A stretch of DNA of 34,274 nucleotides. Source: a virus. Its lineage: Duplodnaviria > Heunggongvirae > Uroviricota > Caudoviricetes. The DNA lies in the IMG/VR virus record IMGVR_UViG_2913167280_000006, positions 1-34,274 of that record. The stretch is one strand, 5' to 3'. The notes beneath the pieces were generated by a model. That model was not told where the DNA came from, did no database searches, and saw only the letters and a list, made by a program, of their open reading frames with translations. Of the stretch, positions 1,459 to 7,851 are shown one piece after another (position 1 is the stretch's first letter; every line of letters starts with the position of its first letter). The translations under genes and the position numbers were made by a program.

Positions 1459-2622
1459 TTACACATCATTAGTACCTTCCTTATTTTTTGACTGGGACAA
1501 ATTTGGGACCGATGGGTTCAGGATCGAGTCTATTTGCCGTGCGTGTTCGGTAAGGTGATTAGGTGCAAGGTGAGCATATCGACGAACCATTTCGATAGAC
1601 TCCCAGCCTCCCATTTCCTGTAACACTGACAACGGGACTCCGGCTTGAACCAGCCAACTTGCCCAGGTGTGTCTCAAGTCGTGAAATCTGAAATCATCAA
1701 TACCAGCCCGTCTCAGCGCCGCTTTCCAGGCTGTGTTTGCGTCATACCGCATCTTCCTTACTGTTGGCGCTTTCGTTCCGTCTGGTTTGGTACAGCTTTC
1801 CTTGTACACAAATACCCAACGGTGATGATTCCCGATTTGTTTTTTCAATACGCGACATGCAGTATCATTCAGCGCAACGCCAATTGCGCGGTTTGATTTA
1901 CTCTCTTCCGGGTTTATCCATGCCACCCGGCGCTGCATATCTATTTGTTGCCATTCAAGGTTGATGATGTTCGAGCGTCTTAAGCCTGTTGCCAGTGCAA
2001 ATTCAACAACAGACTTTAATGGCTCCGGACATTCATCAATCAGCCTTTGTGCTTCATGGGGCTCCAGCCAGCGGATCCGTTTATTCTTTGGTTGAGGCAC
2101 TTTAATAATTGGTGCCTTATCCAGCATTTTCCATTCACGCTCTGCGGCTCTTAGTAGGGCCTTTATAAATGAAAGATGCGTAGCCTTCGTTGCAACGGAC
2201 GCTGGTTTTGGCGTGTATTCTGGAACAGGTTTCCCTTTTTTTCTGCACGCTTCTGCCCTGAGTTTCCAGTTTTCCTCATGACGCCGGTTCGTCATTTTCT
2301 GCATTGCTGAATAAATTTTTGATTCAGTAATGTCTCTTAGTTGCATTCCTGCGAAATGTTGAAGCCAGAATCCGATCCGGCTTTTGTCATCGTCCAGTGA
2401 TTTTTTATGTGCTTTCTCTTCAAGCCACCTGACACACGCTTCCTCGAACGTTATATCAGGTATTTCACCAAGTTTGCTGACCCGCCATGCTTCAGCCTTT
2501 AGCTTGTCATGGAGTTCTGTCGCCTGCCTTTTGTCCTTTGTTCCAAGAGACTGTTTAAATCTTTTACCGTTCGGCAATGTGAAACTGGCGTACCATATTT
2601 CACTTCTGCGGAAGAGTGACAT
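1459..2622 (-). CDS. int: Tyrosine-type site-specific integrase (P22 Int-like, thrW-specific)
   Basis: 387-aa ORF with the C-terminal catalytic region ...[40 protein letters not shown] (R..HxxR..Y); adjacent to tRNA-Thr, the known P22 attachment locus. Confidence 0.9.
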
Positions 2623-2841: not shown

Positions 2842-3186
2842 TTAGTACTGGCGTAGCTCGCTAATTCTTCTGTAAGTTTCTGGTGCTTTGTTTCCGTGTA
2901 TCTTCATTTCAGACTTCAACAGAGCAACGAGAGAATCCCATTCGTTGAGGATGCCTTTGAATGCCGGAACGCGCTTTGCAACCTTGTCGAATGAATCTCT
3001 GATTTCTGGAATCTGCTCAACAAGTGCAACGCATCGTCGGAAATCGGCTGCGTCATGTGGAGCACCGAAGTGATGACCATAGATATTCTTTTTCAGTCCA
3101 CATGCGATTGAGGCAAGAGTTGCGCTACTGATGCCGACATCGCCAGTCGTTTGCCATTTCAAAATCTTCATAGCCAAATCTGACAT
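2842..3186 (-). CDS. Hypothetical protein
   Basis: ORF track 2842..3213; the internal Met (MSDLAMKILKW...) follows a GGAGA ribosome-binding site and avoids overlap with the upstream terminator hairpin. Confidence 0.45.
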   Translation of the reverse strand: MSDLAMKILKWQTTGDVGISSATLASIACGLKKNIYGHHFGAPHDAADFRRCVALVEQIPEIRDSFDKVAKRVPAFKGILNEWDSLVALLKSEMKIHGNKAPETYRRISELRQY

Positions 3187-3200
3187 TTCTTGTCTCCAAT

Positions 3201-3222
3201 AAAAAACCGCCATCAGGCGGCT
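3201..3222 (-). terminator. Putative intrinsic terminator
   Basis: Hairpin CCGCC-ATCA-GGCGG followed on the minus strand by a T-run (A6 on plus), just downstream of the 3251..3565 gene. Confidence 0.4.
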
Positions 3223-3250: not shown

Positions 3251-3565
3251 TCAGCCTTTGGTCACCCAGCATTGTGAGTCACCATTACACGGGCATGAAT
3301 TAACAGGAACTCTCTCGCCGCACTTACCGCAACGTTTTATGCTGATCGATTTTATACGCCAGCGCACAAGTGCATCATCCTGGCGGCTCAGTAACGCGAT
3401 GTACTCACCAAACTCGTAAGGCGCACGCCTGAAGCGACGCGTGGCACAGTTACGCTCCAGCATTTCAATTTCCTGAGCATCAAGTACAAGCTCCAGCTTA
3501 CGCATACCGGATGATGCTTGCTTGGCTCTCTGATCGGCTTTGCGCTCTGCTGCTGATTTAGCCAT
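3251..3565 (-). CDS. Hypothetical protein with a C-terminal Cys cluster (CGKCG...CPCNGDSQC), possible zinc ribbon
   Basis: 104-aa ORF preceded by a ribosome-binding site; basic N-terminus, Cys-rich C-terminus. Confidence 0.5.
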   Translation of the reverse strand: MAKSAAERKADQRAKQASSGMRKLELVLDAQEIEMLERNCATRRFRRAPYEFGEYIALLSRQDDALVRWRIKSISIKRCGKCGERVPVNSCPCNGDSQCWVTKG

Positions 3566-3725
3566 TCTGCTTTTCCTGCATCAGGAGAAAGACAATCATA
3601 GCGGCGCGGATGCTTCCGATATCTCTTTATGCGATAAGCACATACAAGCAGCGAACCATCAACTGGAGTGAGTGAGGAATCGACCACAAGCAACGCCCCT
3701 TGCAATATGCCTTCGCGGTAATGGC

Positions 3726-3816
3726 TGTCACCCGCGGAACAATTTATCTGCTGGCTGCATGAAAAGCCAGCAATACAACTTTTGCTGACTTTCCACCGTT
3801 AACGCGACACAACCTT
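3726..3816. repeat. Left arm of an inverted repeat flanking the 3902..4603 gene; carries a 34-bp insertion absent from the right arm
   Basis: TGTCACCCGCGGAACAATTTATCTGCTG...ACTTTCCACCGTTAACGCGACACAACCTT is the reverse complement (2-3 mismatches) of 4770..4827. Confidence 0.8.
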
Positions 3817-3901
3817 TGTTCCTGAGCTTCACGTTGCAGAGCCGATAATCTCCGTCTCTTTAAATTAAAAAGACGGAGACTATTAAAAACTCATTAAAAC
3901 A

Positions 3902-4603
3902 TCAGGAAACAACAGATTCCCCGTAAAACGCTACAGCCTGTGCAGACTGGGAGTCCATATCATCATGGAGATCTCTGGAGTATGGGAGGGAGTTGACTGT
4001 CGATATAAATATACTGTCATTTTCTAAAGTGAAAATTTCTGATTCGAGACTACCAATATCACCACGTACAGGATTAGTCCACCCACTAAACAGTAAAAAT
4101 CCCCATTCCTGAAAAAGCCCGGAATTCACTTCACGTTTTACATCATGAAACATTTCTCCCGTCAGTTCATCGAAAGGGACATTATTGATATCGCGTCGTG
4201 CCGGGACAGTCCCTTTTTTATCCTCAATCCAAAACAATGCATCGTAAAATCTGTCCGACGTTGCGGTACGAGGTTTAAAGAAGCGATAAGGTTTAATTAA
4301 ATAAGATGACACATTTTTCCCTGTGGCTTTATCCTTCGCAAAAATAACAAATGTTTTACCAATGCAACTTTCATCAATATCATTTGAAAATGACACCACG
4401 CCGTCCTGATTTACAGTCAGCGAATTGTCTCCCGCATTGGTGACAACACTCCAGTCCAACGTATTATTATTGACAACATCATTGTCAACCACCATCTGAA
4501 ATGTCGCGCCTGGAAATAATGTTTTCGGGAATGAACCATTAGCCATGTCTTTTTTTATATCGAACACATGGTGGCTCACTAGAACACCGGTAATTTTGGG
4601 CAT
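3902..4603 (-). CDS. Hypothetical protein, paralog A of an AT-rich two-member family in this prophage
   Basis: 233-aa ORF (MPKITGVLVSHHVFDIKKDM...LFPGATFQMVVDND...QEWG...AQAVAFYGES); AAGGAG ribosome-binding site upstream; AT-rich; shares motifs with the ORF at 16042..16719. Confidence 0.7.
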   Translation of the reverse strand: MPKITGVLVSHHVFDIKKDMANGSFPKTLFPGATFQMVVDNDVVNNNTLDWSVVTNAGDNSLTVNQDGVVSFSNDIDESCIGKTFVIFAKDKATGKNVSSYLIKPYRFFKPRTATSDRFYDALFWIEDKKGTVPARRDINNVPFDELTGEMFHDVKREVNSGLFQEWGFLLFSGWTNPVRGDIGSLESEIFTLENDSIFISTVNSLPYSRDLHDDMDSQSAQAVAFYGESVVS

Positions 4604-4769
4604 AAAAAACTCCTTATTTGTTTAATTGAAATGCGATCAATAAATTCGATCACCAAAGAGATATTATTACTTTTACAAGAATAAATGTTGTTATTTGTTT
4701 ATTATAAAACAATCATCACCCAGAAAAGAAAAAGATGCAGCTCGTTAACAAAAACCTTTGTGGCATATT

Positions 4770-4827
4770 AAGGTTGTGTCGCGTTAACGGTGGAAAGTCA
4801 GCAGATAAAATTGTTCTGTGGGTGACA
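4770..4827. repeat. Right arm of the inverted repeat flanking the 3902..4603 gene
   Basis: AAGGTTGTGTCGCGTTAACGGTGGAAAGT CAGCAGATAAAATTGTTCTGTGGGTGACA, reverse complement of the left arm. Confidence 0.8.
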
Positions 4828-5026
4828 ATCCATCACCCTGAGGATGCTGATATTGCCCCTTGCGCATCATGTGGATTAATTCAACGCCGGCCAGTATCGT
4901 AGCCGTTCCATGAAATAGGTGTGCAAGTTCTCCGGTTGCTCACGGGCTACCTGTTCTGCAATTACCGGTATATTCATCCGCTCTTTGTAGGCAACGCCGC
5001 TGGCGGCTAGGTCAACGTTGAAGTGG

Positions 5027-5455
5027 TCAACCAAAACTGGCCACCGAGTTAGAGTTTTTCCAGTTGTCGCGTATATCAGATGCAAGCGACTGTTCGGATT
5101 TTGAGTTACATTTCTGTGCAAACATCTCCAATCCCTGCGCCCGGACTTCAGCCAAGAAAGCGTCGGTGGCTGGGGGTTCGCTGTGGTGCAGGGCATCATT
5201 GATAATCATCGCAGCTACTCCGGCCTGTCCTGCGTCCGTGACCGACACATGCTCAAGAGTTACGGCCATTGCGTTTTTCAGCCCAGCATTCTCCTCCGCC
5301 AGCGCCGCGCATTTAGCTTCAAGTTCACCGAACTTACGCACCAGATATTCAGCGTTTGTTTCGTTAACCTTTAAATCTCGTGGGATGCATTTACCTTTCA
5401 GAAATCCATCTATCTCAATTAGTGACATTTGTTTCATTTCTTCCCACTCCGCCAC
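5027..5455 (-). CDS. Hypothetical early-region protein
   Basis: 142-aa ORF ([21 protein letters not shown]...), start overlapping the stop of the upstream small ORF; an overlapping downstream ORF (4876..5199) may be a frameshifted continuation or a separate small gene. Confidence 0.45.
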
Positions 5456-7695: not shown

Positions 7696-7851
7696 TGGCG
7701 ATACCAGAGAGCTTTCTGCGTGTACATGCGCCTCTGTAACTTGCTCTCCTTCACTGTGGTTGCAAGTGACATGAATATCTCCTTCGTTACCGATTAATTC
7801 TTTCATCTGACGAATGAATTCTTCGTCTGACCAGTTATCTGTAAAACTCAT
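7696..7851 (-). CDS. Small acidic hypothetical protein (51 aa)
   Basis: ATG overlapping the kil stop (ATGA); MSFTDNWSDEEFIRQMKELIG...; an alternative overlapping frame also exists. Confidence 0.3.

Follow-up and report, generated by a model that had tools for sequence, protein, structure and literature searches.

What kind of event leaves a single AT-rich gene between two near-identical inverted sequences beside the integrase gene of a lambdoid prophage? We addressed this question in the 34,274 nucleotides (nt) that make up positions 1 to 34,274 of the IMG/VR virus record IMGVR_UViG_2913167280_000006 (the whole stretch is called the window, and coordinates refer to it unless a locus id is given), in which an inverted repeat encloses a gene for a 233-amino-acid (aa) protein. 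An earlier note based on the letters of this DNA (the original prediction) had suggested an invertible or mobilisable module or a recombination scar. The scar was borne out by our analysis, as the arms of the repeat align as inverted stumps of IS6-family insertion sequences (ISs) that are fused to truncated copies of hot and humD. We consider it highly probable that the segment is an IS-derived recombination scar around an imported moron gene, that is, the decayed core of two inverted ISEas1-like copies of the IS6/IS26 family flanking a foreign segment of 957 base pairs (bp), which at times has been inverted by homologous recombination.

A repeat search located the two arms at 3726-3816 and 4770-4827, around the AT-rich segment. 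The 34 nt next to the segment (3783-3816 and 4770-4803) form a perfect core with 100% complementarity, and the outer parts of the arms are 90% (3726-3745 and 4808-4827) and 93% (3743-3756 and 4796-4809) complementary. A chance origin of the repeat was rejected, as the expectation for a perfect 34-nt inverted repeat is ~1e-14 (~3e6 position pairs in 2.6 kb multiplied by 4^-34). The passenger segment itself, 957 bp between the two inward-facing IS tips (3815-4771), has a G+C content of 31-43% against ~50% in the flanks, and the gene of the 233-aa protein is its sole open reading frame (ORF). The near-identical inverted sequences, the drop in G+C content and the single gene in ~950 bp, all of which the original prediction had described, were thereby confirmed.

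The identity of the arms came from a sensitive blastn comparison of the cassette with 5,426 complete E. coli genomes (RefSeq), in which the left arm gave three matches, each at the 3' end of an IS6-family element on a plasmid, and one of these elements is annotated as ISEas1. Both arms align with the 3' part of ISEas1 through the last base of the element, with 80-83% identity to ISEas1 and to its Yersinia and Serratia relatives, and on both sides the homology ends exactly at the cargo. ISEas1 has GGTTCTGTCGCATTAA as its left end (position 2282 of locus L001) and TTAATGCGACAGAACC as its right end, with the transposase gene between them. The tips in the window, GGTTGTGTCGCGTTAACGG at 3814 and 4772, align with the right terminal inverted repeat (IRR) of ISEas1 and with its left counterpart, GGTTCTGTCGCATTAA, and display the GG tip and the cTGTt motif of the IS6 family. 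Both stumps are right ends, and both tips point into the cargo.

The left remnant (3726-3814, 89 nt, plus strand) comprises the last transposase codons, a hairpin-forming segment and the IRR; it is 80% identical to positions 720-809 of the 811 of ISEas1 and also aligns with the IS6 copies of plasmids XJ6.1 and C012. The right remnant (4772-4900, 129 nt, minus strand) equals the last 163 nt of the element minus a 34-nt piece, with 83% identity to ISEas1 647-748 (102 nt) plus the IRR core, and its undeleted form, taken from locus L025, is 80-82% identical over 166 nt to the IS6 elements of Serratia, Yersinia enterocolitica and Xenorhabdus and to ISEas1. The last ~13 transposase codons survive in the left stump and the last ~38 in the right one, and a complete IS, with a DDE transposase between outward-facing left and right ends, was not found in 3726-4900. 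Judging from these alignments, the stumps are remnants of an IS6-family element and not an IS, and the '57-bp inverted repeat' is best described as the overlap of two unequal stumps of 89 and 129 nt. The repeat unit of ~57 bp claimed earlier is present, but it is not self-contained: the IS-derived DNA runs to 4900 on the right and ends at 3726 on the left, at the fusion to humD. A symmetric origin similar to that of a miniature inverted-repeat transposable element (MITE) was considered and dropped, since the stumps are unequal and the apparent outer boundary of the repeat is the humD junction. No intact parent IS was found among 185,579 GTDB species-representative genomes, in which a degenerate 28-nt end pattern matched only two cassette-bearing Escherichia genomes.

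The inequality of the two stumps includes the 34-nt hairpin-forming segment (segment 'x', 3754-3787, plus strand), which lies between CTGCTG and TTGCTG in the left arm and which the original prediction had taken for an insertion. This was wrong. ISEas1 and related IS6 elements contain the segment, and six related loci (L011, L013, L018, L023, L025 and L027) have it in the arm on the hot side; therefore it is ancestral IS sequence, and the right arm of the window carries a deletion between short direct repeats. We suggest that slippage between the CTGCTG repeats around it removed the hairpin-containing piece, and that lineages differ in the arm that was affected. The side does differ between loci: the hot-side arm lacks the segment in the window (kept at 3754-3787) and the humD-side arm lacks it in L023 (kept at 3444-3477; the equivalent in L011 is 7772-7805). 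The deleted form of the arm would still end the transposase reading frame, at a TAA within the terminal repeat.

The outer ends of the stumps are joined to two gene remnants. On the left, humD' (3603-3735, minus strand) corresponds to the C terminus, from ~residue 36 on, of a UmuD'-like S24 peptidase, with 79% identity to humD of the P1-like plasmid pTB423. On the right, hot' (4898-5019, minus strand) encodes residues ~17-58 of a homologue of DNA polymerase III theta (Pfam DNA_pol3_theta, E 5.8e-22; 84% identity to the pTB423 theta gene) and is truncated at both ends. In pTB423 the two genes are intact, co-oriented and adjacent, with the theta gene immediately upstream of humD and 123 bp without a gene between them (L020 2352-3116). 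Compared with this arrangement, the breakpoints in the window fall within both hot and humD, at short microhomologies: GTGATGG.TGTC at the junction of humD and the left stump (humD GGTGATGGCTGTCTGCCGC, IS AGTGATGGATTGTCACCTGCGG), and CGT at the junction of hot and the right stump. It follows from the normal side-by-side position of hot and humD that the structure took the place of the hot end, the spacer and the first half of humD. We had also entertained that the repeat extends outward in a degenerate form, but the humD/IS6 microhomology accounts for this and the idea was dropped. The 5' truncation of hot' is abutted exactly by a 46-nt remnant of an IS911 end (IS3 family, 5019-5064), which is 96-98% identical to the IS911 ends in Sf6, SfII and many E. 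coli records. As side observations, a lambdoid prophage here carries decayed copies of the P1-type pair hot/humD among its int-proximal accessory genes, and a humD with a similar truncation is annotated as 'UmuD-like protein' in phage Chlobot, where it occurs without the cassette.

These features can be ordered into a plausible history. Two oppositely oriented ISEas1-like copies would once have bracketed an AT-rich segment with one gene, a ribosome-binding site and a terminator. Intramolecular transposition in trans is known to yield, in the IS6 family, an inverted segment bracketed by inverted IS copies (PMC7986276), and the inverted copies seen here might have arisen by such replicative transposition, or by two independent insertions. 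The outer parts of both copies, with the transposase gene and the left ends, would then have been lost, and illegitimate recombination at microhomologies would have fused the inner stumps with the truncated genes hot and humD. The order of these events, the recombination pathway of the inversion described below and the function of the protein are what we infer from the present arrangement.

The variant in which two ISs inserted independently on either side of a resident AT-rich gene, so that the order hot-cargo-humD is older than the IS copies, deserves attention, although we consider it unlikely. AT-rich DNA is a common IS target, and the arms differ by ~10% outside the core (in the part named o1 and in the 34-nt segment), which is large for copies from one replicative event. 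However, no gene occupies the space between hot and humD in the intact reference pTB423, and both genes are truncated at junctions that lie inside the IS, which fits a replacement better than an insertion beside a resident gene. The closest relative of the cargo, with 79% DNA identity, sits in a non-phage island, which also counts against this variant.

We think it very improbable that the unit is a mobile insertion cassette (MIC) or MITE, with IS6-derived ends around a passenger and a transposase supplied in trans. The arms do derive from IS6, terminal inverted repeat included, and the family has MITE derivatives (PMC7986276), but with both tips being right ends that point inward, the DNA delimited by these ends is everything except the cargo. 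No direct repeats are found at 3726 and 4827, where the flanks are GGTAATGGC and ATCCATCAC. Moreover, all 16 contigs compared (17 locus ids, L007-L015, L018, L019 and L022-L027, of which L014 and L019 are on the same contig) have the unit at the hot'/humD' junctions or fail to reach both flanks, and exact-pattern scans of genome, viral and metagenome collections show no copy elsewhere. As the segment has neither a transposase nor outward-facing ends, it cannot transpose as a unit, and from the known mechanism of IS6 elements we infer that the cargo cannot be the transposable unit. In this family passenger genes normally lie between IS copies in direct orientation, an arrangement that is invariable in pseudo-compound transposons (PMC7986276). 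The claim that the cassette might be mobilisable thus found no support in its inward tips, in its lack of a transposase and target duplication, or in its two junctions, which are the same in every locus.

How the module spread can be read from its distribution. The identical protein is encoded in at least 8 other assemblies and in 6 IMG/VR prophage contigs, and window 3400-5300 has an exact (100%) match in L012 (GCA_004212315.1), an unclassified cryptic-clade Escherichia assembly. In megablast and blastn searches the cargo was absent from the complete E. coli genomes and from deposited phages, in which the arms and flanks alone were matched, and the exact junction pattern had no match in JGI metagenomes and, in IMG/VR, only at six loci already known. 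The carriers are lambdoid prophages of cryptic-clade Escherichia, and wherever the contig reaches the flanks, the order is hot' - stump - cargo - stump - humD' - orf104, with like junctions and 98-100% identity. In these prophages the module adjoins several integrase types, and the chromosomal neighbours are proA-thrW (the type of the window), a pectinesterase gene, fliE, yniD and an RND (resistance-nodulation-division) efflux operon. A constant module beside differing integrases and neighbours implies spread by phage mosaic recombination and not by transposition, and we propose that the module moves only together with a conserved block, located where the early-left region is closest to int, and that lambdoid prophages exchange this block by recombination.

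The segment appears to carry its own expression signals, as had been proposed. The gene (3902-4603, minus strand) is preceded by an AT-rich region (4604-4771, minus strand) that contains a Shine-Dalgarno sequence, AGGAG (4610-4614), 6 bases upstream of the ATG, a stem-loop (4633-4653) and a candidate -10 element, TATAAT (4701-4706). The gene is closely followed by a probable terminator (3845-3883), a hairpin whose 19-nt arms are 89% complementary. The ratio of non-synonymous to synonymous substitution rates (dN/dS) between paralogs is ~0.3, indicating a real gene under purifying selection. We also noticed that the stem-loop in the gene leader, between TATAAT and the ribosome-binding site on the minus strand, has an 8-bp stem and a T-rich tract, and it may be an attenuator or leader structure.

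The comparison with related prophages, which the original prediction had proposed as a check, bears directly on invertibility. The gene has the window orientation in 13 contigs (14 locus ids), and L018 (Escherichia whittamii, NZ_JACSQI010000011.1) has this orientation as well, with the gene cut at ~codon 120 by an IS911-like end that is followed by an integrase fragment (735-930); L018 is a further decay stage of the module. In L023, a sister prophage, the cargo is inverted as a block between the same hot' and humD' junctions, although its flanks match those of L011 at 99.5% identity and both prophages have the 434-aa integrase type. In the metagenome contig L007, the terminator side of the cargo is joined to the hot-side stump, that is, the cargo is again inverted. 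The L023 arms differ from each other in a telling manner: the hot-side arm retains the 34-nt segment and resembles a mosaic of both arm types, and the humD-side arm is without the segment. This pattern agrees with arms of ~100 nt that underwent homologous recombination and gene conversion, and with another slippage deletion that occurred independently of the first. Arms of 58-102 bp would be long enough for homologous recombination of the RecA or phage Erf/RecT type, by which the cargo could have been flipped and the mosaic arms made. The prophages of this group encode Rad52/Erf- or RecT-type recombinases, and arms of this length could be substrates for these enzymes or for RecA.

A programmed invertible switch, in which the flip changes the expression of the invasin-tip gene (described below), for example with or against read-through from pL, seems to us quite improbable. 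Such a switch would agree with the presence of both orientations between identical flanks in nature (L023 and L007), with the perfect conservation of the 34-nt core in all arms, and with the gene being co-oriented with the early-left genes in the window and antisense to them in L023. Against it, no invertase was found: the segment has one ORF, the invasin-like gene, and neither of the two ORFs that separate the segment from int (3251-3565 and 2842-3213) matched an entry of Pfam or PADLOC. The sole recombinase nearby is the prophage integrase, whose type varies between loci while the module stays constant, and the arms are already accounted for as IS stumps. In addition, the ribosome-binding site, the AT-rich upstream region and the terminator are inside the segment, so a flip would disconnect no promoter, and beside the 13 contigs in one orientation, each assembly, being a consensus, shows a single orientation. 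The segment is thus invertible in an evolutionary sense, having been flipped between like flanks in L023 and L007, but it does not look like a programmed switch.

Returning to the IS-derived scar around an imported gene, several points weigh against it. The parent IS is known at ~80-83% identity only and no intact close copy was found, so that the stage with two full ISs is reconstructed and not observed. The outer IS ends are missing, and no 8-bp target-site duplications are left to separate an intramolecular inversion from two independent insertions; the inner flanks of the IS tips are TTTGTTCC and TTAATATG, and a match between them is required by neither model of origin (PMC7986276). The core is invariant while the remaining arm sequence differs by ~10%, which gene conversion can explain, although a functional constraint is also possible. 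We gave less weight to L007, a short contig whose arms are identical and which may in part be an artefact of assembly. The putative promoter of the cargo gene is, as far as the letters show, a perfect TATAAT with a poor -35 only. We note separately that the 34-nt core beside the cargo is 100% identical in all arms of all loci (3783-3816 and 4770-4803, and their equivalents in L007-L027).

What, then, is the cargo? The original prediction could name no family and guessed at an Ig-like N-terminus; the guess was right, and a family can in fact be named, the D4-D5 tip of invasin and intimin. Pfam Invasin_D4 (PF21764) matches residues 23-101 with E 1.6e-8, and the N-terminus aligns by sequence with residues 302-366 of Yersinia invasin (1CWV). 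Close homologues are few, with only 14 clusters among 5.8 billion proteins, all of 218-233 aa except one truncated member of 156 aa, and wherever a source is named for a cluster, it is Escherichia. When 1.8 billion representatives were searched with a profile, 51 matches resulted. Most of these are the last 160-200 residues of large invasin/intimin-like proteins (roughly 540-1,540 aa) and span both domains with the LW.EWG motif; a few others stand alone, as proteins of ~200-230 aa. Among the profile matches we observed P0038, P0042 and P0077, stand-alone proteins of ~210-226 aa outside the close Escherichia family that start at the invasin D4 boundary and have no signal peptide; they hint that orphan invasin tips may form a class wider than this family.

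The predicted structure is consistent with this assignment. With an alignment of the 14 close homologues, AlphaFold modelled the first domain only (C-terminal domain with a predicted local distance difference test score, pLDDT, <50), and this model was replaced by one from a 35-sequence alignment (AF2), which reached pLDDT 85 and a predicted template-modelling score (pTM) of 0.86. Structure prediction followed by Foldseek, as the original prediction had suggested, returned invasin first (1CWV; E 1e-12, TMq 0.69, root-mean-square deviation 3.2, whole query) and intimin second (1F00; E 1e-6). A point on the other side is that the alignment behind the second model includes invasin-like C-termini, and the agreement with invasin is partly inherited from them; the homology evidence from hidden Markov models is independent of it. 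A fold search of viral proteins (BFVD) gave generic Ig-domain matches and none beyond the Ig-like domain, and NCBIfam, PHROGs and PADLOC scans of the protein gave no match. The protein models as a free-standing invasin D4-D5 superdomain, Ig-like plus C-type-lectin-like.

Several parts of an exported adhesin are missing. The protein starts at the D4 boundary (MPKITGVLV...), has no other Pfam domain, and shows no signal peptide or hydrophobic N-terminus, no LysM or beta-barrel anchor and no Big_1 stalk. The disulfide of the lectin domain is also lacking, as the WC and C-terminal C columns, kept in most invasin-like sequences, have no cysteine here, and the family has a conserved C-terminal tail of its own, AQAVAFYGES. 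We read it as a soluble and probably cytoplasmic two-domain module for ligand binding, homologous to the integrin- or Tir-binding tip of invasin and intimin. It is not a phage structural or regulatory protein, and we propose with low confidence that it acts as a moron-type accessory binding protein. It might be an adhesin-like factor that is released at lysis, or an intracellular binder or inhibitor.

The paralogs of the cargo protein lie in diverse places. One is in a chromosomal islet between nfrA and emrE-folD, another is beside an NlpC/P60 gene, and a third, 46% identical, lies alone on the opposite strand within the nin region of a different lambdoid prophage (L028 3745-4422), where it adjoins a 508-aa large serine recombinase. 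L004 (6001-8034; Escherichia sp. E3659, VATQ01000061.1) has a paralog with 70% identity, and 60 nt downstream of it follows the gene for a protein of 424 aa that contains a Scabin-like ADP-ribosyltransferase domain (Pfam E 7e-13). Both adjoin a tyrosine integrase and an autotransporter, and the two may form a toxin-partner pair. As a long shot, signal-less free-standing D4-D5 proteins could be an undescribed class of intracellular binders on Escherichia mobile elements, serving as orphan immunity proteins or inhibitors against Scabin-like toxins, or in phage exclusion, with IS-derived arms that may have been co-opted to flip the gene back and forth independently of a recombinase, setting its expression relative to read-through from pL. 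The immunity part of this idea arose because one paralog is directly upstream of a gene for a Scabin-like ADP-ribosyltransferase.

The surroundings of the module are those of a prophage at thrW. The window starts with proA (1-1254), followed by the tRNA-Thr gene thrW (1369-1444), after which the prophage starts with its integrase gene (1459-2622, minus strand); the chromosomal flank is ~96.5% identical to E. coli. Two minus-strand ORFs, of 104 and 123 aa, separate the cassette from int; they are conserved and accompany the module in most related prophages examined, while L009 has different genes there, and the 104-aa ORF carries the annotation 'transcriptional regulator' in phages of the phiV10/TL-2011b type.

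Taken as a whole, the segment reads as a fossil of the route by which a lambdoid phage acquired a moron gene. An IS6/IS26-type element would have brought the gene or rearranged the DNA around it, illegitimate recombination would have cut the IS copies to stumps, and phage mosaicism would have spread the block, with the stumps still driving inversion and gene conversion. For annotation, when a single gene near int lies between inverted repeats, the repeats should be compared with IS termini, inward-facing ones included, before an invertible or mobile cassette is proposed. The structure is of an ordinary kind and unusually legible; its modestly novel part is the stand-alone invasin-tip family. 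The gene product is the part worth pursuing, as a small, Escherichia-restricted family under purifying selection that consists of stand-alone invasin/intimin tips without an export signal.

Comparison with known systems places the structure more precisely. Hin/Gin/Cin and Fim switches have a dedicated invertase adjacent to or inside the invertible segment, and none was found for the segment here. MICs and MITEs such as MIC231 of Bacillus cereus share the IS-derived inverted repeats around a passenger gene and the lack of a transposase, but their tips point outward and they have target duplications, whereas here the tips point inward and no duplication is seen. The pseudo-compound transposons or translocatable units of IS26 (Tn4352, Tn2680) likewise hold a passenger gene between two IS6-family copies; theirs are complete, directly repeated and move via cointegrates, whereas ours are inverted and truncated, around a passenger that is not a resistance gene. 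The products of IS6 transposition with inverted copies share the arrangement, as a segment bracketed by inverted copies is a documented outcome of trans intramolecular transposition (PMC7986276), although only the inner stumps are present here, without the transposase, the left ends, readable target duplications or a close parent. Within the family, the arms match the ISEas1 clade: they are 80-83% identical to its last 90-163 nt and share the C-terminal transposase codons and the GG-tipped terminal repeat. On the side of the cargo, Yersinia invasin D4-D5 and the D2-D3 domains of intimin from enteropathogenic E. coli (1CWV, 1F00) show the same Ig-like plus C-type-lectin-like architecture with the FP.TGF and LW.EWG motifs, and the 233-aa protein differs from them in beginning exactly at the D4 boundary, in having no signal peptide, anchor, Big_1 repeats or cysteines in the C-type-lectin-like domain, and in its AQAVAFYGES tail. 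Finally, the insert resembles the morons of lambdoid prophages in being an AT-rich single gene with its own ribosome-binding site and terminator, located among early-left accessory genes and variably present in related phages; it differs from them in that its product is not described as a phage-borne function and in that its route of entry can still be read from the IS stumps.

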